A stretch of DNA of 64,000 bases from an uncultured Methanosarcinales archaeon (GTDB taxonomy: Archaea; Nanobdellota; Nanobdellia; Woesearchaeales; DSVV01), in NCBI GenBank assembly GCA_964453185.1, contig CAYVNN010000004.1:128706-192705 (forward strand), given 5' to 3'. Shown in pieces: positions 6,868 through 63,903 of this stretch. The notes under the pieces are model-generated. The model saw only the letters and a list, made by a program, of their open reading frames with translations, did not search any database and was not told the DNA's origin. The position numbers and the translations under genes are program-made. The stretch's first letter is position 1. Every line of letters begins with the position of its first letter.

Positions 6868-6895
6868 ACGTTTATATATTGTTAGATTCAGTTAA

Positions 6896-7056
6896 TATAA
6901 TAATACCACAGCGGCTCTGGTACAAGGCAAAAAACAATGCTTGTATCGTATATATAATGCCGACTTCATCGACATTATAAGACATTGACTGTGTCAAGTA
7001 TCCTGACATAATATGATATAAAATTTTATAGTGAGCCAAGGCAGTGGTATTATTGC
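6896..7056 (+). repeat. Structured intergenic repeat family copy E1 (composite: also contains the promoter dual-hairpin module)
   Basis: AAUAAUACCAC-CAGCGGCUCUG ... AUAGUGAGCCAAGGCAG-GUGGUAUUAUU. The terminal stems are perfectly complementary. The interior carries tatatataatgccgacttcatcgacattataagac. Confidence 0.6.
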
Positions 7057-19405: not shown

Positions 19406-20085
19406 TTGATATATTTATGTGGTGTTTTTCTGGTGGTTAATGTAGGTAAAGTAGAGGATATTGAGTTAAATTGTAAGACTGCTTATTTAGCAGGAGTTAT
19501 TATTGGCGATGGTCATATATCTAATTCAACTAAGTCAAAGTTAGATTTATTAAGGATTATAAAATTGTTATTGATATTGCAGATAAAAATTTTCTTTATT
19601 GTCTTTATAATATGATTAAAACTATGATTTTAACTAAAAGTATTCCAAGACCAACAAAAATTAGAGGAAATCGAAAAGAACGGTGGTGTTTTCAGTTTAG
19701 AAACAAATCATTTTACTTTTTCCTTACTGGATACTTAGGGATAATAGCTGGCTCAAAAAGTTCATTTGTTAGAATGCCTTTGAAAATTAAAAATGCAAAT
19801 ATTAGGTTAAAAAAATATTTCTTAGCAGGATTATTTGATACTGATGGTGGTTTTAGAGGTAATTCTCTTGGATTTACAACTGCAAGTAAAGACTTAAATA
19901 AGGATGTTCATGATTTATTGGATGAATTATTAATCAGACATAGTCTTGATAAATGGGAAAATAAAAAATATGGAAAATTTTATTATGGGATTAGAATTGC
20001 TAAGTCTGAAATAGATAATTTTTTAAATAAGGTGCCTATACAAAACAAAGAAAAGTTGAAAAGAATCCGTTCCAGATTCCCTTGA
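19406..20085 (+). pseudogene. LAGLIDADG homing endonuclease (two LAGLIDADG motifs) interrupted by a frameshift
   Basis: Motif 1 YLAGVIIGDGHI is in frame 2 (19406-19615). Motif 2 FLAGLFDTDGGF is in frame 1 (19612-20085). The frame change lies near the A5 run at about 19584. The stop TGA (20083-85) overlaps position 1-2 of the downstream tRNA. Confidence 0.55.
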
Positions 20086-20294
20086 GGGGGTGCCGGAGTG
20101 GTCAAACGGGACAGATATTTTTATTTCAACTTTTTAGAATAAAATTAGTTTAAGCTTAGGCCACTTCACTGGTGTAAAGAGTTTACAGCTGTGATTGGAA
20201 GACACCTGTTGGCTTAGTGCCTACTAGGGTTCAAACATGCTCACTAGCGTTTGGAGCTTCCAACGTTAGGGCGTTGAAAGTCCCTACCCCCTCA
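20084..20294 (+). tRNA. Intron-containing class II tRNA, probably tRNA-Leu (A73), with a T-loop (59/60-60/61) intron and a large anticodon-region intron
   Basis: Acceptor GAGGGGG/CCCCCUC with A73. Class II D-arm UGCCGGAGUGGUCAAACGG. Variable-arm hairpin GGCUUAGUGCC. T-arm UAGGG-UUCAAA[45-nt intron]U-CCCUA. A T-run follows. Anticodon not resolved by eye; CUUAG loops are present. Confidence 0.5.
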
Positions 20295-23284: not shown

Positions 23285-23425
23285 ATATTGAGCCAATGCT
23301 GTGATTTCTATAAGCAATAGTAGCACAGCGGCTCTGCCACTAAGGATAATTATAAGTACGAACCGTGTTCTGACGTCATTCTATAGTATAGTTTGATAGT
23401 GAGCCAAGGCGGTGCTACTATTGTT
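23285..23425 (+). repeat. Structured intergenic repeat family copy E2
   Basis: AAUAGUAGCAC-AGCGGCUCUG ... GAUAGUGAGCCAAGGCG-GUGCUACUAUU with perfectly complementary ends. A degenerate extra 3' core, tgagccaatgctgtg, sits at 23290. Confidence 0.6.
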
Positions 23426-24748: not shown

Positions 24749-25516
24749 ATGGAGGGGGAAAATTCACAGCAGGTTAATATTAGTATTACATATGAGACTC
24801 TTTTTGAGATGATTAGGTTAGAGAAAACTAAGAATGATTTACAGAAGTTGAGTCCTACTTTTTTTGCTGATTTTATTCAATATTTTAAAGAAAAAAATGC
24901 AATATTAAGAAGAAAGGAACAGGATTCTGACTTGTTTAATGCAGAAGAAATTAGAAAATTAAGGACCCAGATTGAGAATATTATTAAATTGTTTAATGAA
25001 TTATATACTAGAAGAGAAAGAAAGATTGTTGATATGGCATTGAATAAGGTTAAGACTAATTCTGATCAAATTAACTTGTCTACTCTTTTGAAAGAAGAAA
25101 GGATTTTTTATGATATGTTAGTTGAAAGATTAAATTTACAAAGAAAAGAAGTCTTGAATAGAGTTGTTACTCTTAAAGAACCAGATGTTAGAAGACCAAT
25201 TGTTAATAATGTTGTAGAGAATGAGGAAAAGAAAATTGTTGTTGATCAAGAAAAAGAAGTAGTTATTAATCAAGAAGTTCAAAATACAGTTTCTCAGAAT
25301 ACTGTTACTCAACAAGAAAAAATAGTTGAGAAGTTAGAAACTGATAAGAAGGAATCAGAAAAATTAGTTAGATTTATTAGTGCGATTCCTAAATTTTTAG
25401 GTCCTGAATTAGAAGTATTTGGACCTTTTTTTGAGGAAGATATGGTTACATTACCGACAAAGATTGCTGATATATTAATTAAAAAAGGAAGAGCAGAAGA
25501 AATAACTATGGCTTAA
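24749..25516 (+). CDS. GINS complex subunit (Gins51-like)
   Basis: Helical A-domain (YETLFEMIRLEKTKNDLQKLSPTFFADFIQYF). The C-terminal B-domain PKFLGPELEVFGPFFEEDMVTLPTKIADILIKKGRAEEI matches the Gins51 YGPF...LP...A.IL...G.A..I pattern. Confidence 0.55.
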   Translation: MEGENSQQVNISITYETLFEMIRLEKTKNDLQKLSPTFFADFIQYFKEKNAILRRKEQDSDLFNAEEIRKLRTQIENIIKLFNELYTRRERKIVDMALNKVKTNSDQINLSTLLKEERIFYDMLVERLNLQRKEVLNRVVTLKEPDVRRPIVNNVVENEEKKIVVDQEKEVVINQEVQNTVSQNTVTQQEKIVEKLETDKKESEKLVRFISAIPKFLGPELEVFGPFFEEDMVTLPTKIADILIKKGRAEEITMA

Positions 25517-25518
25517 TT

Positions 25519-25630
25519 GTTATTAGCACTACAGCGGCTCTGGTACGATGTTAATTATGAAGTACGTATCTTATCTTTACGCTATTATAAATTAAATAAG
25601 ATAGTGAGCCAAGGCGGTAATGCTAATTTA
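25519..25630 (+). repeat. Structured intergenic repeat family copy E3
   Basis: UUAUUAGCACUA-CAGCGGCUCUGGUAC ... GAUAGUGAGCCAAGGCGG-UAAUGCUAAU. Sits between convergent gene ends. Confidence 0.6.
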
Positions 25631-29584: not shown

Positions 29585-29695
29585 ATAGTACCGCCGCCTT
29601 GGCTCACTATATTATTTATCTTATTATGACGTAAGGATACGGTACGTACATTGTAATATTTCATAGTACCAGAGCCGCTGCGGTACTATTATTGT
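29585..29695 (-). repeat. Structured intergenic repeat family copy E4 (inverted orientation)
   Basis: Minus-strand reading: AAUAGUACCGC-AGCGGCUCUGGUAC ... AUAGUGAGCCAAGGCGGCG-GUACUAUU. Confidence 0.6.
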
Positions 29696-29697
29696 AA

Positions 29698-30363
29698 TCA
29701 TAAAAATCCTAATGCTTCATCTATTGTTACAGCTTCTACTCCTGTGGTAGCTTCTCCAATAATGATGCCATTTGAATTAGTTAGTATTCCTGCTTTTACA
29801 TAAGGACTACCAAAGTTAACTGTTGCTCTTATTGGTTTTAGTTTTAGTAATTTTTTGACTTGAGCAATGTTTTCTTCTGTAGCACATGAATGAATTACAA
29901 CACCTTTTGAATTATGTGCACAACATGCACCAACAACTTCAATGTCTGCAATCATTCCAGGGTTTAATGGAACATTAAGTGCTGTTCTTATCTCTTTCTT
30001 TGTTTTTGCACTAAAATCTGGATTAACTAAACAACCATTATCATTACAAAGAATATTATTTCCAAATGCAGTTAGTTTTGTGTCAATTATTTTATATTCA
30101 ATATTTAATTTTTCTATTACTTTTAATTCATTGTCTTCAATTATATTTGGTAATAATAAACAATTATTATTTCCTGTACATAATGCACCAATTAATGAGG
30201 TTTTTCCAATTGTAATTTGGTGAACAGGAACCTTTAGTATTTTTCCTATCTTTTGAGCTAATTTTTTTTGTACAGTTTTACCTAATAAACAGTATGAATC
30301 AGTACAATAACCGTATAGCCCTATATTAGGGTTTTTGTTTATGTTTGTTTTTAATATATGCAT
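29698..30363 (-). CDS. eif6: Translation initiation factor 6 (aIF6)
   Basis: 221 aa with five-fold pseudo-repeats and …NPNIGLYGYCTDSYCLL… typical of eIF6. Confidence 0.8.
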   Translation of the reverse strand: MHILKTNINKNPNIGLYGYCTDSYCLLGKTVQKKLAQKIGKILKVPVHQITIGKTSLIGALCTGNNNCLLLPNIIEDNELKVIEKLNIEYKIIDTKLTAFGNNILCNDNGCLVNPDFSAKTKKEIRTALNVPLNPGMIADIEVVGACCAHNSKGVVIHSCATEENIAQVKKLLKLKPIRATVNFGSPYVKAGILTNSNGIIIGEATTGVEAVTIDEALGFL

Positions 30364-32542: not shown

Positions 32543-32678
32543 GGGCCTGTAGCTTAGTCTGGTTGGAGCGCTGGTCTTATATGGCTTCGTTTCATACAAG
32601 AAATTGGCTCTGAGTGAGCCAGTGGTCGTGAGAGGTCATCTTTTAGATGATTCACGAATTCAAATCTCATCAGGCCCA
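32543..32678 (+). tRNA. tRNA-Ile (UAU) with two introns (37/38, 35 nt; 53/54, 26 nt)
   Basis: GGGCCUG-UA-GCUU-AGUCUGGUUG-GAGC-G-CUGGU-CUUAUA[35 nt]A-GCCAG-UGGUC-GUGAG[26 nt]UUCAAAU-CUCAU-CAGGCCC-A. All helices pair. An oligo-T follows. Confidence 0.65.
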
Positions 32679-35230: not shown

Positions 35231-35440
35231 CTATCTATCATTAATAGGTTATTGTATTTAAATTTATCTGGATATTTAATAATATTTAAACTCAAGGTAC
35301 TTCTAGCTTAGTAAAAATTAAATAGTTCAATTCCCTTACTTATGTAAACAAAAAAGAAATTCCTACACAGGTTTTAACCATTGGTTCTTTGTTGGGTTTT
35401 GGCGTCATTTTTTTGTATGTAATATTTACTTTATTAAAAT

Positions 35441-35548
35441 TATTAGTACCACAGCGGCTCTGATTCTAAGTGAAATAATAGTGACGCAACATATTTTATT
35501 GCGAATTAATGAGTTATTAGAAAAGGAGTCAAGGTGGTGGTACTAATA
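35441..35548 (+). repeat. Structured intergenic repeat family copy E5
   Basis: AUUAGUACCAC-AGCGGCUCUGAUUC ... GGAGUCAAGGUGG-UGGUACUAAU with a slightly degenerate 3' core. Confidence 0.55.
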
Positions 35549-36078: not shown

Positions 36079-36093
36079 AAGATTATGTCTTTT

Positions 36094-36205
36094 AATTATT
36101 AGCACCACAGCGGCTCTGATATTATGTAATATTATTATGTACATTCCGTATCCTTGCGCTGTTGTAAATTAATTTAGATAGTGAGCCAAGGTGGGTACTT
36201 AATAA
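36094..36205 (+). repeat. Structured intergenic repeat family copy E6a
   Basis: UUAUUAGCACCAC-AGCGGCUCUGAUAUU ... GAUAGUGAGCCAAGGUGG-GUACUUAAUAA. Confidence 0.6.
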
Positions 36206-37840: not shown

Positions 37841-38833
37841 TTAATTTTTACTTTTGCTATATCTCCAAGTAACTTTTATTTCGTCTGTTCTGAGGTAAGG
37901 ATCAATAATTGCTTTTTCAGGTTTAATGCCACCATTTGCTTTATACATCTTAATACCAAGCCATGCGATCATTAAGCCGTTATCTACGTTGTATTGATTT
38001 TCTAATGTGAAACATTTAGCTTTTCTCTCTTTACACATTATTTTTGCCATTTCTTGTAAACGTAGATTACAAGCTACACCTCCACCTAAGAGAAGTTCTT
38101 TTTTATTACAATGTGCTAATGCTCTCTCTGCAACTTCCATCATCATTGCATAAACTGTTTCTTGAGCTGAGAAGCATAGGTCTTCTTTTTTATATTTTGG
38201 AATTTTTTGTTTTAGGTTTGTGAGAATTCCGCCAAAACTTACATCCATTCCTTTTACTACATATGGAAGTTCAATGAAATTTTTACCTTTTAATGCTAGT
38301 TTGTATATTTTAGGTCCTCCTGGAAAACCTAATCCAAGTTCTCTTGCAAATGAGTCTAAGAAGTTTCCTAGTCCTATATCTAATGTTTCTCCAAATATTC
38401 TGTATCTATTACCTTCATATGCAATAACTTGAGTGTTTGCACCTGAGATGTATAATAAAACTGGATCTTTTGCTTTTGTTAGAAGTTTACCTATTTCTAA
38501 GTGTGCTATACAATGATTTACTCCAATTAATGGAATATTATGTTTTATTGCTAAACATCTTGCAAACATTGCACCTATTCTTAATGTATGTCCTATACCG
38601 GGTGATGATGAATAGCTGATTAAGTCGATGTCTTTTAAAGTTATGTTTGCTTGTTTTAATGCTTGCTTTAAGATTTTATCGCAGATGTTAACATGATGAT
38701 CTGCAGCTTTTGCTGGGATTATTCCCCCTTTCTTTGTTGTGAAGAGAGATTTCTCATTAGCTAAGATTTTCTTATTTTTTATTATACCTATTCCAAAGGT
38801 ATGTGCAGTGCTTTCTATGCCTAAACATATCAT
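37841..38833 (-). CDS. kae1: Kae1/TsaD tRNA t6A37 threonylcarbamoyltransferase (KEOPS catalytic subunit)
   Basis: MICLGIESTAHTFGIGII…, the ASKHA-fold N-terminus of Kae1, with metal-binding His motifs (…CIAHLEIGKL…). 330 aa, not fused to Bud32. Confidence 0.85.
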   Translation of the reverse strand: MICLGIESTAHTFGIGIIKNKKILANEKSLFTTKKGGIIPAKAADHHVNICDKILKQALKQANITLKDIDLISYSSSPGIGHTLRIGAMFARCLAIKHNIPLIGVNHCIAHLEIGKLLTKAKDPVLLYISGANTQVIAYEGNRYRIFGETLDIGLGNFLDSFARELGLGFPGGPKIYKLALKGKNFIELPYVVKGMDVSFGGILTNLKQKIPKYKKEDLCFSAQETVYAMMMEVAERALAHCNKKELLLGGGVACNLRLQEMAKIMCKERKAKCFTLENQYNVDNGLMIAWLGIKMYKANGGIKPEKAIIDPYLRTDEIKVTWRYSKSKN

Positions 38834-38977
38834 TTTATTACTAGATGTCTGTGAATGTATAAATAGTTTATTATTTATAAAATATTATTCTATGGATTGA
38901 TAATAAATAAAAGTAAGTTATGTTTTTGCAATTATATAGTTAATTTTTTAGCTGTAGATTCTTAATTAAAGGAAAAG

Positions 38978-40237
38978 GTGATGTTTATGTCATTTATTGG
39001 CAGTGTTCTTACTCCTAATGATAGAGTTGTTGTTGCGAATAAGCCAGGAGCAGGTTTTGCCTTAGATTTAGCAAATATGCTGGGACAAAGAGAAAATCCT
39101 TTGTTATTATTAGATAATATTGTTTGGGATGATGGAGAATATTGTCCTGTTTTTTCAACAGATAGATTTGATAGATTTGCAAGAGAAAATGGTAAGTCAC
39201 TTGAAGGTAAGGTTGTTTATATTGTGAGTGTTCCAAGTGGAACTTTTTCTAAACAAGATTTAGCAATGAGGAATTTGTTTATTGCATTTGGTGCAAAACA
39301 TATTTGTGGTGCGGAAGGGGTGGTTTTAGTTTCTCCTGATTTATTTTATTCTGCTGAAGATCGTTCAGATAGAACTCCTTTATGGGTTGATGCTATATCT
39401 TCTGAACATAATTTAAGAAGGTTAAAAGATCCTGATGAATTAGCTAAAATGAAAGGTCATTGTCATACTTCTTTAGCATATGCTACTTTTTTAAAGGCTG
39501 CTGGTGTTGATAGGGTTATTAATCTTCATAATCATAGTTCTGAGATAATGAGAGCAATGTATCATCATGTTTTTGATGATTCAAGTGCTTTTGTAGATAT
39601 ATATGTCTCATCTCTTCTTGGTGCTTATGTTGCAGATACTCCTCTTCTTGATCAGTCTAATGATGGTGCAAATGTTTTATGGGTTTGTCCAGATGGTGGT
39701 GCTAGACCTTTTGTTGAAGCAGCAAGAAAAGATTCAGGGTTAACAAAGTCTGCTCTTGCAGTCATGGGAAAGAAGAGAGATAAGGCTGGGAAAATAATTG
39801 GTTACGAGCTTGTTGATGGAAATGATTACTTTGATCCGGATAGAGGGGTTAGGAATATGGATGTTGTTGAACCAGATGATAGGATAAGATCAGGTAAGAC
39901 AATGGCATTGGGTTGTGGTTATTTTTGTGATAATGGTCAAAGGCCTAGGAAATGGATGTTGTATTCTTCTCACACGAATCTTGCTAAGGCTTTAGCAAAT
40001 CTTGATCATCCTTCAATCACAGACATAGTTGTTTTAGGTGCAGATCCAACAATTAGGAATGGATCAAGATTAGCTCATAAATTAAGTCATATTGATGCTA
40101 TTGCTCCAGTAGCTTATGGGATTGAACAATGTGTAGAAAGGGGATTACATCCTTCTGAAGCGTTTTCGTTGGCACAGGTAAGGGAGCATAGACTTTTATC
40201 ATATGAACCTTCTCCTTTTCATTATAGTAACTTTTAA
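38978..40237 (+). CDS. Ribose-phosphate pyrophosphokinase (Prs)-like protein, divergent and C-terminally extended
   Basis: …VVLVSPDLFYSAEDRSDR… resembles the Prs …VIPYfgYARQDRK divalent-cation/ribose-5-P loop. …VVEPDDRIRSGKTM… resembles a PRTase-type PRPP loop. 419 aa, versus ~290 for canonical Prs. Confidence 0.4.
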   Translation: MMFMSFIGSVLTPNDRVVVANKPGAGFALDLANMLGQRENPLLLLDNIVWDDGEYCPVFSTDRFDRFARENGKSLEGKVVYIVSVPSGTFSKQDLAMRNLFIAFGAKHICGAEGVVLVSPDLFYSAEDRSDRTPLWVDAISSEHNLRRLKDPDELAKMKGHCHTSLAYATFLKAAGVDRVINLHNHSSEIMRAMYHHVFDDSSAFVDIYVSSLLGAYVADTPLLDQSNDGANVLWVCPDGGARPFVEAARKDSGLTKSALAVMGKKRDKAGKIIGYELVDGNDYFDPDRGVRNMDVVEPDDRIRSGKTMALGCGYFCDNGQRPRKWMLYSSHTNLAKALANLDHPSITDIVVLGADPTIRNGSRLAHKLSHIDAIAPVAYGIEQCVERGLHPSEAFSLAQVREHRLLSYEPSPFHYSNF

Positions 40238-40292
40238 TTTTTTTTACCATCACCAAAACCCTTAAATACATCCTTTTCTTATATTATTATGT

Positions 40293-42209
40293 ATGGATAT
40301 TGATAAATTATTGAATAGAATAAGAGAATATAATCCTAATGCAGACATTAAGTTAATTAAGAAATCATATGATGTTGCTTTGAAAGCGCATAAAGGACAG
40401 AAGAGGGAGTCAGGAGAGCCTTATATTTCTCATCCATTGAATGTTGCTAAGATTTTAACAGAACTTAAAGCAGATTCTGCTACAATCAGTGCAGCTTTAT
40501 TACATGATGTTGTTGAAGATACTAATGTGTCTATGGATAAAATAAAAAAAGATTTTGGTGAAGAGGTTGCAACTATTGTAGAAGGGCTAACTAAGATTGA
40601 TAAGATTCATTTTGAAACAAAAGAAGATTATAGTGCTGAAAATTTAAGAAAGGTTCTTTTGGCAACTACTAAAGATATTAGAGTTATGTTAGTTAAGTTA
40701 GCAGATAGATTACATAATATGTCTACATTAAAAAATTTTAGAACAGATAAACAAAAAAGAATTGCAACTGAAACTTTAGAGATTTATGCTCCTATTGCAC
40801 ATAAACTTGGAATGTGGAATATGAAAGGAGAATTAGAAGATTTATCTTTAAGATATCTTAAACCAGACGTATATAGATTTCTTGCAGATAACATTAGTGG
40901 GAAAAGGCAAGAAAGAGAAAAAACAACAAAAGAAATTATTAAATTAATTAACAAAAAATTAAAAGAAAAAAATATTACTGCAGAAATTTATGGAAGAGCA
41001 AAATATTTCTTAAGTATATATAAAAAAATGCAGAAAAAGAATCTTGATATTGATGAGATTTATGATTTAATTGCAGTAAGGATAATTACTCAAACAATTC
41101 CTGAATGTTATGGTGCACTAGGTGTTGTTCATGATTTATGGAGACCTTTACCACATAGGTTTAAAGATTATATCTCTGTTCCAAAAGCTAATGGTTACCA
41201 GAGTTTACATACTACTGTTATCACAAAAGATGGGAGAAAATTAGAAGTACAAATTAGGACAGAAGATATGCATCAGATGGCTGAAGTTGGTGTTGCAGCT
41301 CATTGGAAATATCAAGGTACTGAGAGAGATAAACAGTTTGATAAAAGAATTTCTTGGTTAAAGCAAGTTTTAGATTGGAAAAGAGGATCAGATGATGCAA
41401 AAGACTTTATTGAATCGTTTAAAATAGATTTATTCCACGACGAGATTGTTGTCTTTACACCAAAAGGAGATCCAATTTCATTACCTGTAGGATCATCACC
41501 TATTGATTTTGCTTATGCTGTTCATAGTAATGTAGGTAAACAATGTTCATCAACAAAGATTAATAATAAAATGGTTCCTTTGGATACTGAATTAAAGTCA
41601 GGGGATATTATTGAGATAATCACACAGAAAAATGCTAAACCTTCAAGACAATGGTTGAAATTTGTTAAGACAGGGAAAGCAAGAAATAAGATAAGAGCAG
41701 CATTAAATATAAAATCGGAATTAGATCCTAAAAAGGGAAGATTAAGAAAAGAAATGATACAGGCATCTGAAGAAAAGGTTGTTGATCAAATTATAATTGA
41801 AGGAAAGAAAAAAGGTCAGGTTAAATTTTCAAAATGTTGTAATCCAAGGTATGGGGAAGAAATTGTAGCATTTTTTACAAAAGATAAGAAAATTACTGTT
41901 CATAAAAAGACCTGTCCTAATATTTATACTTTAGATAAGAATAAAGAAATTAAAATTAAATGGAAAGTAAGAAGAACAAAGGAACAATATTTAATTGTTA
42001 TTTCTATAGGAGATAGGTTAGGGTTAATGTCTGAGATATTGAATGTTTTTGTTAAGCATAGAATTAATTTAACTGCGATAAACACAAAGGCAAAGAAAGA
42101 CCATGTTGTTATTAAGATTAATATTGATAAGATTGCTAGGAATGTGGTTGATGATTTAATTATTGATATTAAGAAGCTAAGTGATGTTATGGATGTTGCA
42201 TTGAGCTAG
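40293..42209 (+). CDS. rel: Bifunctional (p)ppGpp synthetase/hydrolase, long RelA/SpoT homolog (HD-SYNTH-TGS-ACT)
   Basis: HD domain HKGQKRESGEPYISHPLNVAKIL…AALLHDVVEDT. Synthetase YGRAKYFLSIYKKM…DLIAVRIITQ…KANGYQSLHTTV. TGS EIVVFTPKGDPISLP…GDIIEIIT. C-terminal ACT-like domain. Confidence 0.85.
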   Translation: MDIDKLLNRIREYNPNADIKLIKKSYDVALKAHKGQKRESGEPYISHPLNVAKILTELKADSATISAALLHDVVEDTNVSMDKIKKDFGEEVATIVEGLTKIDKIHFETKEDYSAENLRKVLLATTKDIRVMLVKLADRLHNMSTLKNFRTDKQKRIATETLEIYAPIAHKLGMWNMKGELEDLSLRYLKPDVYRFLADNISGKRQEREKTTKEIIKLINKKLKEKNITAEIYGRAKYFLSIYKKMQKKNLDIDEIYDLIAVRIITQTIPECYGALGVVHDLWRPLPHRFKDYISVPKANGYQSLHTTVITKDGRKLEVQIRTEDMHQMAEVGVAAHWKYQGTERDKQFDKRISWLKQVLDWKRGSDDAKDFIESFKIDLFHDEIVVFTPKGDPISLPVGSSPIDFAYAVHSNVGKQCSSTKINNKMVPLDTELKSGDIIEIITQKNAKPSRQWLKFVKTGKARNKIRAALNIKSELDPKKGRLRKEMIQASEEKVVDQIIIEGKKKGQVKFSKCCNPRYGEEIVAFFTKDKKITVHKKTCPNIYTLDKNKEIKIKWKVRRTKEQYLIVISIGDRLGLMSEILNVFVKHRINLTAINTKAKKDHVVIKINIDKIARNVVDDLIIDIKKLSDVMDVALS

Positions 42210-43313: not shown

Positions 43314-43454
43314 GGGCCGTTAGCTCAGCCTGGTACTTTGTAAGTATTCAAAGCTTTATCGGCAGGAAAGAGCACTGCACTTTTAACAAAGACTGGAACT
43401 TTCAACCAGTTGAAAGTGATGCAGGTGTCGCGAGTTCGAATCTCGTACGGCCCA
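43314..43454 (+). tRNA. tRNA-Lys (UUU) with two introns (D-loop ~34 nt; anticodon 37/38 33 nt)
   Basis: GGGCCGU-UA-GCUC-AGCCUGGUA[intron]-GAGC-A-CUGCA-CUUUUA[ACAAAGACUGGAACUUUCAACCAGUUGAAAGUG]A-UGCAG-GUGUC-GCGAG-UUCGAAU-CUCGU-ACGGCCC-A. Confidence 0.65.
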
Positions 43455-53415: not shown

Positions 53416-54543
53416 TTGATTGAAATTTCTTTTATTAATACAAAAATGGCAAACTATTATGAGAAGATTAAGGAATTTGAAGATGAGCTGAAGAAGACTA
53501 AATATAATAAGAAAACACAGCATCATATTGGTTTAGTAAAGGCAAAGATTGCTCAGCTTAAAGATAAAGAGGTTAAACGGAGTTCTGGAAAGGGTAAACA
53601 AGAAGGTTATTCTGTTAGAAGGAGTGGAGATGCTACTGTTATAATGGTTGGTTTTCCATCTTCAGGTAAGTCTACTTTATTGAATGCAATCACTGGTGCA
53701 AATTCTCCAGTAGGTGCATATGAGTTTACTACATTAGATGTTGTTCCAGGTGTATTAGAACATAAAGAGTCTAAGATTCAAATTTTAGATGTTCCAGGTA
53801 TTGTACATGGTGCAGCAATGGGAAGAGGAAGAGGAAAAGAAGTATTGTCTTGTTTATATAATGCTGATCTTATTATGTTTATGGTTGATGTTACAAGACC
53901 TGAAGCTTTGAGTGTTTTACAAAAAGAAGTTTATGATTCAAATGTTAGAGTTAATAAAAGAAAACCAGATGTTAGGATTAGGAAAACTGCAAGGGGTGGA
54001 GTAAGAGTTGGGAAAACAGTATTATTACCTGATTTGAAGGATGCAACTGTTAAATCTATACTTAAAGAATTTAGAATAAATAATGCTGATATAACAATTA
54101 GATCAAAGATAGATGCAGATGGATTAATTGATGTAATTGAAGGAAATAAGAGATATATTCCAGGTATGATCATATTAAATAAAATGGATCTTGTTGATGA
54201 AAAAAGGTTGGAAGAGTTAAAAAAGGAGATAAAACCAGATGTTTGTATCTCTGCAGATCAAGAAATTAATTTAGAAGAATTGAAAGATATGGTTTTTAAT
54301 AAGTTAAGATTTATTAGAGTTTATTGTAAAGAAGTTAGGAAGAAAGCTGATATGGGTGTCCCTTTAATCTTACAGGAAGGAGCTACATTGAGAACAATGT
54401 GTGTTAAATTACATAAAGATTTTGTTACTAAGTTTAGGTTTGCAAGAATATGGGGTAAGTCTGTTAAGTTTGATGGTCAAAAATTGTTAAAATTAAAACA
54501 TAGGTTGAAGGATAAGGATGTTGTTGAAATACATTTAAGGTAA
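53416..54543 (+). CDS. drg: Developmentally regulated GTP-binding protein (Drg/Rbg1; Obg-family GTPase with C-terminal TGS domain)
   Basis: G1 GFPSSGKSTLL. G3 DVPGIV. G4 NKMD. C-terminal TGS-like …RVYCKEV…GATLRTMCVKLHKDF. Probable start MANYYEK at 53446. Confidence 0.8.
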   Translation: MIEISFINTKMANYYEKIKEFEDELKKTKYNKKTQHHIGLVKAKIAQLKDKEVKRSSGKGKQEGYSVRRSGDATVIMVGFPSSGKSTLLNAITGANSPVGAYEFTTLDVVPGVLEHKESKIQILDVPGIVHGAAMGRGRGKEVLSCLYNADLIMFMVDVTRPEALSVLQKEVYDSNVRVNKRKPDVRIRKTARGGVRVGKTVLLPDLKDATVKSILKEFRINNADITIRSKIDADGLIDVIEGNKRYIPGMIILNKMDLVDEKRLEELKKEIKPDVCISADQEINLEELKDMVFNKLRFIRVYCKEVRKKADMGVPLILQEGATLRTMCVKLHKDFVTKFRFARIWGKSVKFDGQKLLKLKHRLKDKDVVEIHLR

Positions 54544-62005: not shown

Positions 62006-63214
62006 TTGTTTAATATTATGGCTGAGATTAGTCCTGAACAGAAGGAAGCATTGGAAAAACAGAAGGAACAATGTCCTTTTTGTAAGATTATTAAGGGAGA
62101 AATACCTTCTCATAAGGTATATGAGGATGATTTGATTATTGCTGTTTTAGATATAAATCCTGCTACAAAAGGTCATATTCTTGTTATGCCAAAGGAACAT
62201 TATCCAATTATGCCATTAATTCCACCTGAAACATTTGAACATTTATTTGCAAAGACAAAACATCTTTCACAGTGTTTGAAAGAAGGTATGCTTGTTTTTG
62301 GTGATACTATCTTTATTGCAAATGGTTATGCTGCTGGGCAGCAAAGTAATCATTTTATGCTTCATATTATTCCAAGAGATGAAGGAGATGGTCTAAGTAA
62401 TTTTGAATTTAAGAAAGGTGAAATTGATTCTGCGAAATTTGATGAAGCTTTTAAGATGTTGTCTCATAATTTACCAATTATGTTGAGAAATAGGTCTGGT
62501 AAATTTGCAATGCCTGGGCAGAAAGGAGCACCGCAAGCAGTTGCATATGGTAAAGATGAAATAATAAAAATAATTGAACAAAATCCACAACTTAAAAAAA
62601 TGATTCTTGATCAGCCTGATGCATTTAAACAGCAAGTATTGATGAATGATCAATTAAAGCAATTGTTTGAGAAAGTTGATGTTAATGAAATTATTAAACA
62701 CTTTAATCCTGATGCAAAGATAAGTGAAGATAAAACAGAGCAACCACCAGCTTCTGAATCTACTGTTGGTAATGCAAAGCCTAGTGTGGATGAACTTATT
62801 GTTTTATTAAATCAAAATCCTAAATTAAAAGATATGATATTGACAGATACTATCTTGTTTAAAGAAAATGTTGCAAAAGTTCCTCAAATTAATGAACTAT
62901 TTGGTCATGTTGATATTGATGAGTTAAAAAATAGATTAATTGAGGATTTAAGTAAAGAAGATCTTTTAGATGAGGATGAAAAGAAAGAGGAGAGAACTGT
63001 TAAAGATATGAGTAAAGATGAAGAAGAAGATGTTTTAGATGAATTATTTGGTAATGATTCAAGTGATGATGATAAAAAAGAAGATGATAATGAAGAAGAG
63101 AAAGATGAAGAGAAAAAAGATGATGATAGTAAAGCGGACAAACAGCAAGAAGATAAAGATGATAAAGGACATAGAGGTAATCCATCATTAGATGGGATAG
63201 CAGATTTGTTTTGA
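62006..63214 (+). CDS. HIT-family (histidine triad) hydrolase with a long acidic low-complexity C-terminal extension
   Basis: N-terminal CPFCKIIKGEIPSHKVYEDDLIIAVLDINPATKGHILVMPKEH plus the triad region NHFMLHIIPR. The last ~100 aa are D/E/K-rich. Confidence 0.7.
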   Translation: MFNIMAEISPEQKEALEKQKEQCPFCKIIKGEIPSHKVYEDDLIIAVLDINPATKGHILVMPKEHYPIMPLIPPETFEHLFAKTKHLSQCLKEGMLVFGDTIFIANGYAAGQQSNHFMLHIIPRDEGDGLSNFEFKKGEIDSAKFDEAFKMLSHNLPIMLRNRSGKFAMPGQKGAPQAVAYGKDEIIKIIEQNPQLKKMILDQPDAFKQQVLMNDQLKQLFEKVDVNEIIKHFNPDAKISEDKTEQPPASESTVGNAKPSVDELIVLLNQNPKLKDMILTDTILFKENVAKVPQINELFGHVDIDELKNRLIEDLSKEDLLDEDEKKEERTVKDMSKDEEEDVLDELFGNDSSDDDKKEDDNEEEKDEEKKDDDSKADKQQEDKDDKGHRGNPSLDGIADLF

Positions 63215-63241: not shown

Positions 63242-63352
63242 ACGCTTACCAAAACCGTATACTTCGTATACGAACTTGGATAAGCTTCGTCGTACCAGTG
63301 CCATTGTTACTGCGTAACAAGGCACAAACAATGGCAACGACGGACTTGTCTA
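63242..63352 (+). ncRNA. GC-rich extended hairpin between the two HIT genes (candidate structured RNA or terminator)
   Basis: CGUCGU-ACCAG-UGCCAUUGUU[loop]AACAAUGGCA-ACGACG (about 16 bp with an internal loop), preceded by the palindrome GUAUAC-UUC-GUAUAC. Confidence 0.3.
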
Positions 63353-63360
63353 TAAAGTAA

Positions 63361-63903
63361 ATGTTGAAAATGGCATGTAAGATATGTGAAATAGTGGAAA
63401 AGAAGAATGTGAGTGTATTGTATGAAGATGCAGTAGCTATGGCTATATTGTTAAAAGATGAGGCAACTGCATTAGGTCATATCCAGGTTTTTCCAAAGAA
63501 ACATGTTGAATTACTTGAACAATTAGATGATGAAGTTGTTGTTCAATTGTTTTATATTGCTAGTTATGCTGCAACTGGAGTATTTGAAGGACTCGGAGCA
63601 CAAGGTACAAATATTATTCTTAATAATGGGAAGGGAAGCAATCCAAAACATAATCATGTTGTGATAAATGTTTTGCCGAGAAAAGAAGAAGATGGATTAA
63701 ATTTTCAATGGACACCAAAGCAGTTAAAAGCAGAAGATTTTGAAGAACTTAAAAAGAAGATTAAAGATAAAACTGATTTTATTGGTGTAAAGAAAGATGA
63801 TAAAAAGGCACCAATGGATATTTCCTCTCCCTCATCAGAAACAATAGGTGGAGATGATAAAGAGGAGAATTATCTGTTAAAGAGTATATATAGACTACCA
63901 TAA
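63361..63903 (+). CDS. Second HIT-family protein (paralog) with an acidic C-terminal tail
   Basis: CKICEIV…VLYEDAVAMAILLKDEATALGHIQVFPKKH… and NHVVINVLPR triad-like region. Confidence 0.65.
   Translation: MLKMACKICEIVEKKNVSVLYEDAVAMAILLKDEATALGHIQVFPKKHVELLEQLDDEVVVQLFYIASYAATGVFEGLGAQGTNIILNNGKGSNPKHNHVVINVLPRKEEDGLNFQWTPKQLKAEDFEELKKKIKDKTDFIGVKKDDKKAPMDISSPSSETIGGDDKEENYLLKSIYRLP

Follow-up and report, generated by a model that had tools for sequence, protein, structure and literature searches.

The window analysed here, a 64,000-nucleotide stretch of an archaeal contig, carries a gene for a bifunctional long RelA/SpoT-type (RSH) protein directly downstream of a gene for a protein with the PRPP-synthetase (Prs) fold. 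We consider it quite probable that these are two separate genes of a DPANN (Woesearchaeota-like) archaeon: an inherited bifunctional RSH, and a divergent Prs-like gene whose adjacency to it is specific to the lineage. RSH would occupy its ancestral position beside Kae1, apparently with its own promoter, and the Prs-like gene seems to have been placed between the two in the window lineage only. The locus comprises the following features (positions within the window).

37841–38833, − strand: Kae1/TsaD gene, the divergent neighbour of RSH in the clade (Pfam TsaD, 2.3e-79)
38978–40237, + strand: divergent PRPP-synthetase-fold (Prs-like) gene, 416–419 amino acids (aa)
40238–40245, + strand: run of eight T residues (T8) directly after the Prs-like stop codon, putatively an archaeal-type terminator
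40262–40268, + strand: TATA-like box TTAAATA, −31 to −25 of the RSH start codon, putative promoter element
40293–42209, + strand: gene for a Rel-type long RSH ((p)ppGpp synthetase/hydrolase) of the DPANN clade, predicted to be bifunctional, 638 aa, ATG start

The Prs-like gene and its position beside RSH

The open reading frame upstream of RSH runs for 419 aa from a GTG codon; public gene calls begin at the ATG codons at 38981 and 38987 (418 and 416 aa), one of which, following a Shine–Dalgarno-like GGTGAT motif, is the likely start. The protein has no Pfam match at E ≤ 0.01 and scores 36.7 bits against TIGR01251, below the cut-off of 113, so its similarity to Prs as a single sequence is weak. 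Among its relatives, a bacterial protein (P0127) passes both Pribosyltran_N and Pribosyltran in Pfam, and a DPANN protein (P0184) passes Pribosyltran only. The family profile matches solved Prs structures in the PDB at 9e-23. The AF2 model (pLDDT 83.4, pTM 0.85) consists of two tandem PRT-type domains, and Foldseek matches it to human PRPS1 with an E value of 3e-14 and a target-normalised TM of 0.78; all 50 of the 50 PDB matches listed are Prs structures. The first-pass annotation had described a Prs-like protein of 419 aa and atypical length, and the profile and structural matches, together with about 100 extra residues, bear this out.

Residues common to this protein and E. coli Prs are the Glu of the DGE motif (E54), the Arg of QDR (R129), the His of DLH (H186), the Asp of SPD (D239), the flexible-loop Lys-x-Arg pair (K265 and R267) and, in the DD..T of the ribose-5-phosphate loop, D300, D301 and T308. 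In an alignment that includes E. coli Prs, K265, H186 and D239 show no variation and R267 almost none, and all four are invariant in a 33-member alignment of the Prs-like family; we take the catalytic flexible-loop Lys and Arg and the His to be K194, R196 and His131 in E. coli Prs numbering. The ribose-5-phosphate loop reads DDRIRSGKT, in which DD, G and T are kept and the third Asp is replaced by Arg; the counterpart of YARQDRK is YSAEDRS (Arg to Ala, Gln to Glu); and an insertion of about 30 aa replaces the regulatory flexible loop. Homologues are few, with only 68 clusters at E ≤ 1e-3 in a set of 1.84 billion representatives, and within this small family the protein falls in a rare DPANN subclade, grouping with Woesearchaeota and Nanoarchaeia proteins in 182 of 200 bootstraps and having a C-terminal tail in common with them. 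Alignment and model identify it as a real, very divergent Prs homologue that keeps the core catalytic residues. Because the residues of diphosphoryl transfer are kept, its most likely activity is that of a ribose-phosphate (or related sugar-phosphate) diphosphokinase that uses ATP, with an altered regulatory loop and possibly an altered substrate preference.

The Prs-like and RSH genes lie on the same strand, separated by 55 bp that contain both the T8 run and the TATA-like box. Among random 40-nt windows, 0.3% contain a run of T≥8; of 54 stop codons, 11 are followed by a run of T≥6, and no such run lies in the interior of the RNA polymerase and exosome operons, the two recognisable ones. A TATA-like box stands at the same distance from RSH at three loci without a Prs-like gene (L033, L034 and L036). 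The box is consistent with RSH having its own promoter and an mRNA that is leaderless or has a short leader, and together with the T8 run it argues for two transcription units. Both calls, promoter and terminator, are based on short AT-rich motifs in a genome of 30% GC. Co-transcription of the two genes by read-through over the gap is possible.

The divergent Kae1(−)|RSH(+) pair recurs at L033–L035, L001, L045 and L047, with Kae1 identities of 65–79%, and is found in five differently arranged neighbourhoods. Among the loci compared, only the window lineage has a Prs-like gene between the two; such a gene is absent near RSH at 10 other archaeal loci (L001–L003, L033–L037, L045 and L046), at a DPANN-type metagenome locus (L047) and at 97 bacterial RSH loci. 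Conversely, none of six Prs-like relatives (P0122, P0206, P0182, P0127, P0124 and P0164) adjoins an RSH gene: P0122 lies upstream of ScpA, whereas P0206 and P0182 each occupy a site between prefoldin and Tyw1. The adjacency is best explained by a rearrangement specific to the lineage, and not by a conserved signalling module. A coupled Prs–RSH nucleotide-signalling module, which the first-pass annotation had proposed, is not supported, because the pair is confined to the window lineage and terminator- and promoter-like signals lie between its genes.

A weaker form of association, for which we see a small chance, is that PRPP and purine metabolism is the main target of the alarmone enzyme in DPANN archaea, and that selection favours such neighbours without forming an operon. 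In bacteria, (p)ppGpp acts on PRPP-binding enzymes such as PurF, HPRT and related proteins. A purine or PRPP gene adjoins RSH in three of nine distinct arrangements, namely the Prs-like gene in the window, a PurF-like gene at L033–L035 and a PNP_UDP_1 gene at L045, which leaves room for a loose functional link; by a rough post-hoc estimate, the probability of this arising by chance is a few percent, assuming that such genes fill about 8% of the positions flanking RSH. However, the sample is small and was counted after the fact, the three genes differ, and two of them (PurF-like and PNP) are oriented convergently with RSH. The neighbours in the other six arrangements are unrelated: a geranylgeranyl-reductase-like gene, PheRS and PGK, a GlmU-like gene, and unknowns with a TrmB regulator nearby. 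Downstream of RSH, the window has a HAD hydrolase gene where close relatives have the PurF-like gene.

Domain organization and predicted activity of RSH

The RSH protein scores 707.8 bits against TIGR00691 (spoT_relA), for which the cut-off is 499.2, and a PDB sequence search retrieves B. subtilis Rel (6yxa) at 6.7e-156. Its AF2 model (pLDDT 81) matches ribosome-bound RelA (5iqr; E value 1e-42) and full-length SpoT (7qpr). The gene encodes the following domains.

40371–40817, + strand: HD hydrolase domain, aa 27–175 (Pfam HD_4, 6.5e-51)
40992–41321, + strand: (p)ppGpp synthetase domain, aa 234–343 (Pfam RelA_SpoT, 1.5e-40)
41445–41624, + strand: TGS domain, aa 385–444, with His411 in an AVHSNVG motif (Pfam TGS, 1.3e-19)
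41628–41831, + strand: shortened alpha-helical linker between TGS and zinc finger, 68 aa (alignment and AF2 model)
41832–41972, + strand: zinc-finger/ribosome-intersubunit (RIS) domain, aa 514–560, KCC..(20)..H..C
41973–42206, + strand: C-terminal ACT/RRM domain, aa 561–638 (sub-threshold Pfam ACT and ACT_4; AF2 model)

All catalytic motifs of both the hydrolase and the synthetase are intact in an alignment to B. subtilis Rel and E. coli RelA and SpoT. In the HD domain these are HPL (47–49), HDxxED (71–76) and DRLHN (138–142), and across 122 clade members every motif residue is the majority residue and most are at least 90% conserved; the surrounding LHDVVEDT (70–77) and ADRLHNM (137–143) are identical to B. 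subtilis Rel and degenerate in E. coli RelA. The synthetase domain has the G-loop GRAKYFLSIYKKM (234–246), D258, RFKD (289–292), YQSLHT (302–307) and EVQIRT (318–323), again conserved residues of the clade, mostly at 90% or more in the 122 members. RFKD is of the basic RxKD type found in B. subtilis Rel and E. coli SpoT.

The regulatory C-terminus is also complete, with TGS, helical (half length), zinc-finger/RIS and ACT/RRM regions. His411 of the TGS domain is invariant in a 48-sequence clade alignment, and the sampled bacterial sequences have the same His at the aligned position. The zinc finger aligns with those of E. coli RelA and SpoT; its C515, C516, H537 and C541 are invariant in the 48 sequences, a second stretch of the PDB alignment covers residues 654–762 of 8fr8_I in the zinc-finger/RIS region, and a precomputed match to PF28438 (RelA_RIS) is present. 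The C-terminus falls just below threshold for both ACT (2.3e-05, 24.5 bits, cut-off 27) and ACT_4 (7.5e-05), and the model gives the order expected for the fold, beta-alpha-beta-beta-alpha-beta. The only structural peculiarity is the helical linker, modelled with three helices at 452–497, which is about half as long as in bacteria (56–72 aa across the DPANN clade against 123–147 aa in full-length bacterial long RSHs), so that regulation may differ from that of bacterial Rel. The description of a complete HD–synthetase–TGS–ACT protein with all its catalytic motifs was thus correct, with Pfam, TIGR00691 and the motif alignment in agreement, and can be extended by the zinc-finger/RIS domain; a check for loss-of-function substitutions in the synthetase motif revealed none.

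From the conservation of motifs and fold we infer a two-way mechanism, in which the synthetase domain would use ATP to pyrophosphorylate the 3′-OH of GDP or GTP, yielding (p)ppGpp, and the HD domain would hydrolyse it again, the balance being set by the TGS, short helical, zinc-finger/RIS and ACT regions. Activation by stalled ribosomes with deacylated tRNA, a trait of long RSHs, would likewise be predicted from the motifs. The retention of motifs across the clade points to purifying selection acting on the sensor region as well as on both activities, and for this reason an RSH that is hydrolase-only, acts on another substrate in the manner of MESH1 and NADPH, or makes (p)ppApp appears improbable, given that hydrolase motifs, TGS His and zinc-finger Cys/His residues are all kept along with the synthetase motifs (catalytic Asp/Glu, RFKD and YQSLHT). 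Such altered activity would fit the resemblance of the HD fold to MESH1 and small alarmone hydrolases, and the shortened linker, which could uncouple the protein from ribosome sensing. It would also fit the failure so far to detect (p)ppGpp in the archaea tested (PMC10249747).

Spread and inheritance of RSH in DPANN archaea

More than 120 homologues share 55–66% identity and the same architecture with the window RSH, at lengths of 614–680 aa; the 120 best matches span 563–680 aa, and the 119 full-length ones among them 614–680 aa. All homologues to which an organism name is attached come from DPANN archaea (Woesearchaeota, Nanoarchaeota, Nanoarchaeia or Nanobdellota), a tally of the named ones only, as most of the 120 have no taxon label. 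RelA/SpoT was reported in DPANN in 2021, in 41.7% of Woesearchaeota and 69% of Diapherotrites, and a bacterial origin was also claimed for it (PMC8407392). The statement that long RSH proteins are almost absent from archaea, repeated in the first-pass annotation, is the picture of 2011 (PMC3153485) and does not hold for this archaeal group. RSH is common and long-resident in DPANN archaea, as already reported, and the window copy is not novel in kind.

In trees built by neighbour joining (NJ) only, the DPANN clade, including L047, separates from 97 sampled bacterial RSHs in 100 of 100 bootstraps; a bipartition excluding L047, which proved to be a clade member, is never recovered. Against 18 bacterial sequences, support is 99 of 100, and this tree picks out no bacterial sister group. 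Among the bacterial Rel sequences sampled, those nearest to the window protein reach about 50% identity. Base composition agrees with residence in the genome. In the RSH gene, GC3 (z = 0.4) and synonymous-codon log-likelihood (z = 0.7) are native, as are GC3 (z = 0.0) and synonymous codon use in the Prs-like gene; the latter's raised overall GC (0.359, z = 1.7) arises at codon positions 1 and 2 and therefore reflects amino-acid composition. Positions 38978–42209 thus give no codon-use sign of foreign origin. With 100/100 NJ support, conserved Kae1|RSH synteny and native codon use, RSH falls within a broad, vertically inherited archaeal clade, the placement that the first-pass annotation had named as evidence against its proposal of horizontal acquisition. 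One part of that proposal stands: at about 50% identity, a bacterial origin in the distant past is probable, and the family probably stems from one ancient transfer from Bacteria. A rare or recent gain does not fit the fully supported clade; the gene has a long history of inheritance within DPANN archaea, with conserved architecture.

A recent horizontal acquisition of RSH, as part of a co-transferred and co-transcribed nucleotide-signalling module with the Prs-like gene, is accordingly very unlikely and is contradicted by the synteny and codon-use results. EC 2.7.6.1 and EC 2.7.6.5 enzymes both transfer pyrophosphate from ATP, and this likeness between the two families, like the shared strand, the 55-bp spacing and the raised GC of the Prs-like gene, would suit such a module; against it stand the large DPANN clade with its retained Kae1|RSH order, the native GC3 and synonymous codons, the lack of a Prs-like gene beside close RSH relatives and of an adjoining RSH gene beside Prs-like relatives, and the T8 run and TATA-like box between them. 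No flanking repeats or mobile-element signs were found around the two genes.

The host is clearly an archaeon, as the first-pass annotation had recognised: the window encodes RpoH, split RpoB and RpoA, archaeal NusA, Kae1, eIF6 and GINS51, as well as exosome subunits, an S-layer protein and intron-containing tRNAs. That a piece of bacterial DNA was wrongly assembled or binned with an archaeal contig, a reading for which nothing but the bacterial affinities of the RSH family speaks, is ruled out by five independent assemblies (JGI, ENA and Logan) with identical gene order and archaeal genes on both sides, and also conflicts with the native codon use and with the synteny that relatives keep with Kae1 and RpoH.

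Comparison with known systems

In domain order, the window RSH corresponds to the bifunctional Rel of Firmicutes, Thermus and Actinobacteria (6yxa; RelSeq 1vj7; 6s2u). It is 50.8% identical to B. subtilis Rel over the N-terminal domains and TGS, its model reaches a TM of 0.86 with T. thermophilus Rel (6s2u), and HDxxED, DRLHN, the G-loop, RFKD, YQSLHT and EVQIRT are held in common. It differs in its host, an archaeon with archaeal ribosomes and RNA polymerase, in that its activity and ribosome dependence are predicted, and in length, about 640 aa instead of 700–780 because of the shorter linker (56–72 aa in the clade versus 123–147). The long RSH architecture, the CC..H..C zinc finger and the TGS His also align with E. 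coli RelA and SpoT, to which identity is 38.7% and 47.3%, respectively. In E. coli RelA, however, the HD domain is dead and the motif is the acidic ExDD (aligned as EFDD), whereas the window protein combines an HD domain of the active type with basic RFKD, and is therefore Rel- or SpoT-like, not RelA-like. The RelA/SpoT proteins of other DPANN archaea (PMC8407392; NCBI MAG annotations) are the same family with nothing essential different; relative to their loci, the window has the Prs-like gene upstream and the HAD hydrolase in the PurF-like position.

The Prs-like protein shares the two-domain fold of class I PRPP synthetases (E. coli Prs, B. subtilis Prs 1dkr and human PRPS1 8dbe; target-normalised TM 0.73–0.80), from which it departs in sequence (17–19% identity), in its additional residues (the flexible-loop insertion, a further insertion at the N-terminus and a C-terminal tail some 40 aa long) and in its motifs (DLH to HNH, RQDR to AEDR and DDxxDTGGT to DDRIRSGKT). 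A preprint describes many divergent PRPS classes that retain catalytic residues, and a heterogeneous, cross-domain PRPS region dominated by DPANN and CPR organisms (PMC13252144). The family of the window protein, with its 68 representative clusters, is much rarer.

The RSH enzyme and its archaeal host

The locus comprises two consecutive genes on the forward strand, downstream of a divergent Kae1/TsaD gene (37841–38833, −):

38978–40237, +, Prs-like (PRPP-synthetase fold) ORF, 419 aa from a GTG start
40293–42209, +, RSH (RelA/SpoT-type long (p)ppGpp synthetase/hydrolase) ORF, 638 aa

The first-pass annotation described the RSH ORF as a complete long RSH with HD, synthetase, TGS and ACT domains and recognizable catalytic motifs, and this description held up throughout. 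Pfam assigns HD_4 (6.5e-51), RelA_SpoT (1.5e-40) and TGS (1.3e-19) domains, with ACT near threshold; the TIGR00691 score is 707.8 bits (cut-off 499), and a precomputed RelA_RIS match is on record. The best match in a sequence search of solved structures was Bacillus subtilis Rel (6.7e-156), and the other best matches were 8fr8_I (deposited as RelA), 7oiw (deposited as GTP pyrophosphokinase and described in the structure search as Staphylococcus aureus Rel) and Escherichia coli RelA. When aligned with 121 relatives from the clade and with bacterial references, the protein showed intact hydrolase motifs (HPL, HDxxED and DRLHN), synthetase motifs (GRAKYFLSIYKKM, D258, RFKD, YQSLHT, EVQIRT and AAHW), zinc-finger CC..H..C and TGS His411. 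Because the RFKD motif is basic and the HD domain is live, the enzyme is Rel- or SpoT-like rather than RelA-like. Its AlphaFold2 model (pLDDT 81) matches ribosome-bound RelA (1e-42), full-length SpoT and Thermus thermophilus Rel (TM 0.86). The synthetase domain also matches the PADLOC defence candidate PDC-S33 (55.6 bits), and PADLOC returned no match for the Prs-like protein; we rejected a role in defence, taking the PDC-S33 match as generic synthetase-domain similarity in housekeeping surroundings.

The host, with a genome of about 30% GC, is an archaeon. The window encodes RpoH, split RpoB and RpoA, archaeal NusA, ribosomal proteins S12 and S7, Kae1, eIF6, GINS51, exosome subunits, the proteasome alpha subunit, an S-layer protein and two tRNAs that probably contain introns (43314–43454, +, 141 nt; 32543–32678, +, 136 nt), both found by Rfam and missed by ARAGORN. 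The gene order Kae1, Prs-like, RSH, HAD hydrolase and RpoH is identical in five independent assemblies, so the locus is not an assembly artefact. Public gene calls start the Prs-like gene at ATG 38981 or 38987 (418 or 416 aa), and a Shine–Dalgarno-like GGTGAT motif lies just 5′ of its start.

Several further features of the window were recorded. A tRNA-like sequence (20086–20293, +) starts with GGGGGTGCCGGAGTGGTCAAACGGGACAG and ends with GAAAGTCCCTACCCCCTCA, with over 100 nt of intron-like sequence between its halves; neither ARAGORN nor Rfam detected it, even at E ≤ 1. Directly 5′ of it, within 19480–20085, is a free-standing LAGLIDADG homing-endonuclease ORF (19612–20085, +; Pfam LAGLIDADG_3, 9.8e-12). 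The first LAGLIDADG-like motif, YLAGVIIGDGHI (about 19486–19520), lies upstream of this ORF in another frame, and the gene therefore appears to be disrupted. A repeat of about 85 nt, built around the core CAGCGGCTCTGGTAC, occurs between genes at 6885–6985 (+), 23302–23402 (+), 25508–25608 (+), 29604–29704 (−), 35428–35528 (+) and 36084–36184 (+), with a weaker copy near 63292 (−); the core has eight matches at three or fewer mismatches, against 0.12 expected. The predicted hairpin is weak, and the single copy searched against Rfam gave no match; candidate identities for the repeat are a small RNA, a miniature mobile element and a regulatory site. Two neighbouring genes encode HIT-domain proteins (62006–63214, +; 63361–63903, +), the first of 402 aa, in which only the N-terminal 126 residues form the HIT domain and the remainder has no domain assignment.

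Distribution and origin of the RSH clade

The premise that long RSH proteins are almost absent from archaea probably stems from a 2011 survey, in which Atkinson et al. described their absence as an archaeal trait (PMC3153485); a 2023 review of archaeal second messengers, in which (p)ppGpp is still said to be undescribed in archaea, cites only that survey (PMC10249747). Li et al. reported in 2021 that RelA/SpoT occurs in Diapherotrites (69%), Woesearchaeota (41.7%), Pacearchaeota (21.3%) and Nanoarchaeota (19%), and inferred that it had been acquired from Bacteria (PMC8407392); the RSH family was therefore already known in archaea from genomics. Our homologue search contradicts the premise: among the best 120 of 8,000 matches (55–66% identical, 563–680 aa, 119 of them full-length homologues of 614–680 aa), every sequence with a named organism is from Woesearchaeota, Nanoarchaeota, Nanoarchaeia or Nanobdellota. 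Searching genome contigs with the RSH protein yielded only three archaeal loci, the source genome not being among the matches; two of the three bear the depositor label ‘Methanosarcinales’, yet encode a DPANN-type RSH.

Neighbour-joining trees of the catalytic and TGS region placed these sequences in a clade apart from 18 bacterial sequences in 99 of 100 bootstraps. We then scanned metagenomes with two conserved 8-mer patterns from the clade alignment, which returned mostly bacterial RSH proteins and one further DPANN locus, L047, a new clade member with 54% GC and the same short linker. When 79 of these metagenomic bacterial sequences were added, the clade including L047 separated in all 100 bootstraps; the bipartition without L047 was never recovered (0 bootstraps), because L047 itself belongs to the clade. 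Mean distance inside the clade is 0.46 and the nearest bacterial sequences lie at 0.73 or more; B. subtilis Rel is 50.8% identical to the window RSH. No single bacterial donor emerged, the sister group shifting among bootstraps between CPR, Lachnoanaerobaculum and mixed groups. Two CPR homologues (L004 and L005; Patescibacteria and Staskawiczbacteria) are C-terminally truncated: their stop-to-stop ORFs, of 547 and 583 aa, retain little or none of the ACT region, and in the Patescibacteria copy the zinc finger is missing as well.

Gene order and composition are consistent with long residence in this lineage. The divergent pair Kae1(−)/RSH(+) recurs in six other loci (L033, L034, L035, L001, L045 and L047), the first three of which encode RSH proteins 63–66% identical to that of the window, and the closest relatives also have in common with the window an uncharacterised upstream gene of 422–428 aa and downstream RpoH–RpoB genes. 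Codon use across 38978–42209 is native: RSH has a GC3 z of 0.4 and a synonymous-codon z of 0.7, both typical of the window, and the Prs-like gene has a GC3 z of 0.0. The proposal of a rare RSH recently acquired by horizontal transfer is thus contradicted by the DPANN clade, the shared Kae1/RSH synteny and the native codon use, and the phylogeny points instead to a broad, vertically inherited archaeal clade. The ultimate origin of the family is likely to be an ancient transfer from a bacterium to DPANN archaea, as has been proposed before.

The Prs-like protein as a neighbour of RSH

As a single sequence, the Prs-like protein has no Pfam match and scores 36.7 bits with TIGR01251 (cut-off 113). 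A profile of 33 relatives matched solved Prs structures at 9e-23, and the AlphaFold2 model (pLDDT 83.4) has the two-domain Prs fold, matching PRPS1 (E = 3e-14; target-normalised TM 0.78); the initial reading of a Prs-like protein of atypical length is supported by these matches and by about 100 extra residues, including an insertion of about 30 aa at the position of the regulatory flexible loop. Relative to E. coli Prs, it retains the DGE Glu (E54), QDR Arg (R129), DLH His (H186), SPD Asp (D239), the flexible-loop Lys-x-Arg (K265 and R267) and the DD..T of the ribose-5-phosphate loop (D300, D301 and T308), whereas DLH has become HNH, RQDR has become AEDR and the third loop Asp is Arg. We infer from these residues that it may be an active enzyme of the diphosphokinase type whose regulation, and possibly substrate, has changed.

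The family is rare, with 68 clusters at E ≤ 1e-3 and four at E ≤ 1e-30 among 1.84 billion representative proteins. This estimate rests mainly on that search, because a profile search for DPANN-type members, limited by its word pre-filter to 25 matches, missed two known ones, P0182 and P0184. Most members come from bacteria (Reinekea, Pseudomonadales and Myxococcales), are about 400 aa long and occupy unrelated genomic neighbourhoods. The window protein and its one close relative (P0122, 46% identical) group in 182 of 200 bootstraps with proteins of about 465–510 aa, three of which are named Woesearchaeota or Nanoarchaeia; the C-terminal tail of these proteins is also present in the window protein. 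This grouping and tail identify a DPANN-type gene rather than a fresh bacterial import. Its GC content (35.9%, against a mean of 30% across window ORFs) was rejected as a sign of transfer; neither GC3 nor synonymous codon use (z −0.7) departs from the native pattern, so the elevated GC stems from the protein's amino-acid make-up. A Woesearchaeota subfamily of about 470 aa (L041, 8001–9419; the P0182 locus), which differs from the window protein by two extra insertions, sits in a conserved FtsY–prefoldin/Prs-like/Tyw1 or NMD3 neighbourhood.

The suggestion that Prs-like and RSH form a coupled nucleotide-signalling module is not supported. The Prs-like gene is absent from the fetched flanks of ten other archaeal RSH loci, L047 and 97 bacterial RSH loci, and its relatives lie elsewhere: P0122 upstream of ScpA in a related archaeon, and P0206 and P0182 in the FtsY–prefoldin/Prs-like/Tyw1 context. 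Between the two genes, a T8 run (seen in 0.3% of random 40-nt windows) directly follows the Prs-like stop codon, and a TTAAATA box occupies positions −31 to −25 relative to the RSH start codon. Runs of six or more Ts follow 11 of 54 stop codons and none lies inside the two recognizable operons (RNA polymerase and exosome), and relatives without the Prs-like gene have a TATA-like box at an equal distance from the RSH start. Scans for sigma-70 promoters and hairpin terminators, bacterial models that are not applicable to an archaeal host, gave matches at or below shuffle expectation. Insertion by a mobile element is not supported, the direct and inverted repeats around 38834–40292 being short and at chance level. 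The most economical interpretation is that, in this lineage, the Prs-like gene came to lie between Kae1 and RSH, upstream of an existing putative RSH promoter; its position is lineage-specific and probably incidental, and nothing found ties it mechanistically to the alarmone enzyme.

A looser functional association of RSH with PRPP or purine metabolism genes seems improbable to us. Such a gene lies beside RSH in three of nine distinct clade arrangements (Prs-like in the window, PurF-like in L033–L035 and a nucleoside phosphorylase in L045), although this count is post hoc and the sample small. The PurF-like amidophosphoribosyltransferase genes, convergent with RSH (L033, 6914–8545, −; L034, 6951–8609, −), encode a long hydrophobic N-terminal extension ahead of the catalytic Cys; the convergent L045 gene (6934–7863, −) encodes a PNP_UDP_1 phosphorylase. 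In the window, an HAD hydrolase occupies the corresponding position, and tblastn found no PurF remnant.

Proposed signalling and comparison with bacterial RSH proteins

By its motifs, the RSH synthetase would convert ATP and GDP or GTP to (p)ppGpp, which the HD domain would hydrolyse back, with the C-terminal TGS, short helical, zinc-finger and ACT regions expected to control the switch. A genuine archaeal stringent response, in which the DPANN Rel clade senses translation status on archaeal ribosomes and acts mainly on PRPP and purine enzymes such as the flanking Prs-like, PurF-like and phosphorylase proteins, is a speculative proposal that we hold to be unlikely. If RSH is active, (p)ppGpp signalling would extend to a large archaeal group; textbooks and the 2023 review (PMC10249747) still treat such signalling in archaea as absent or unimportant.

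Downstream of the RNA polymerase and S12–S7 genes, the window encodes a GTPase with a C-terminal TGS domain (53416–54543, +; Pfam MMR_HSR1, MMR_HSR1_Xtn and TGS), which we read as a candidate DRG-type protein. Bacterial GTPases of this broad class bind (p)ppGpp, making it a possible (p)ppGpp target by analogy. Within the PRPP-synthetase fold, the Prs-like protein represents a small branch that is as yet uncharacterised and may be worth studying biochemically.

The window RSH belongs to a known, previously reported kind, and its significance is that of the whole DPANN Rel clade, already annotated and reported in 2021, rather than of this locus. The conserved TGS His and zinc finger suggest that the ability to sense tRNA and the ribosome has been retained. 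With catalytic and sensor motifs conserved alongside a halved helical linker, the clade would offer a natural experiment in which a ribosome-sensing enzyme from bacteria adjusts to archaeal ribosomes. Architecturally, the window RSH departs from full-length bacterial long RSH proteins only in the helical segment that connects TGS to the zinc finger. This segment spans 68 aa in the window protein (56–72 aa in the clade) compared with 123–147 aa in bacteria, a difference that accounts for the shorter total length; its halving suggests that the protein has adapted to another ribosome or another regulator.
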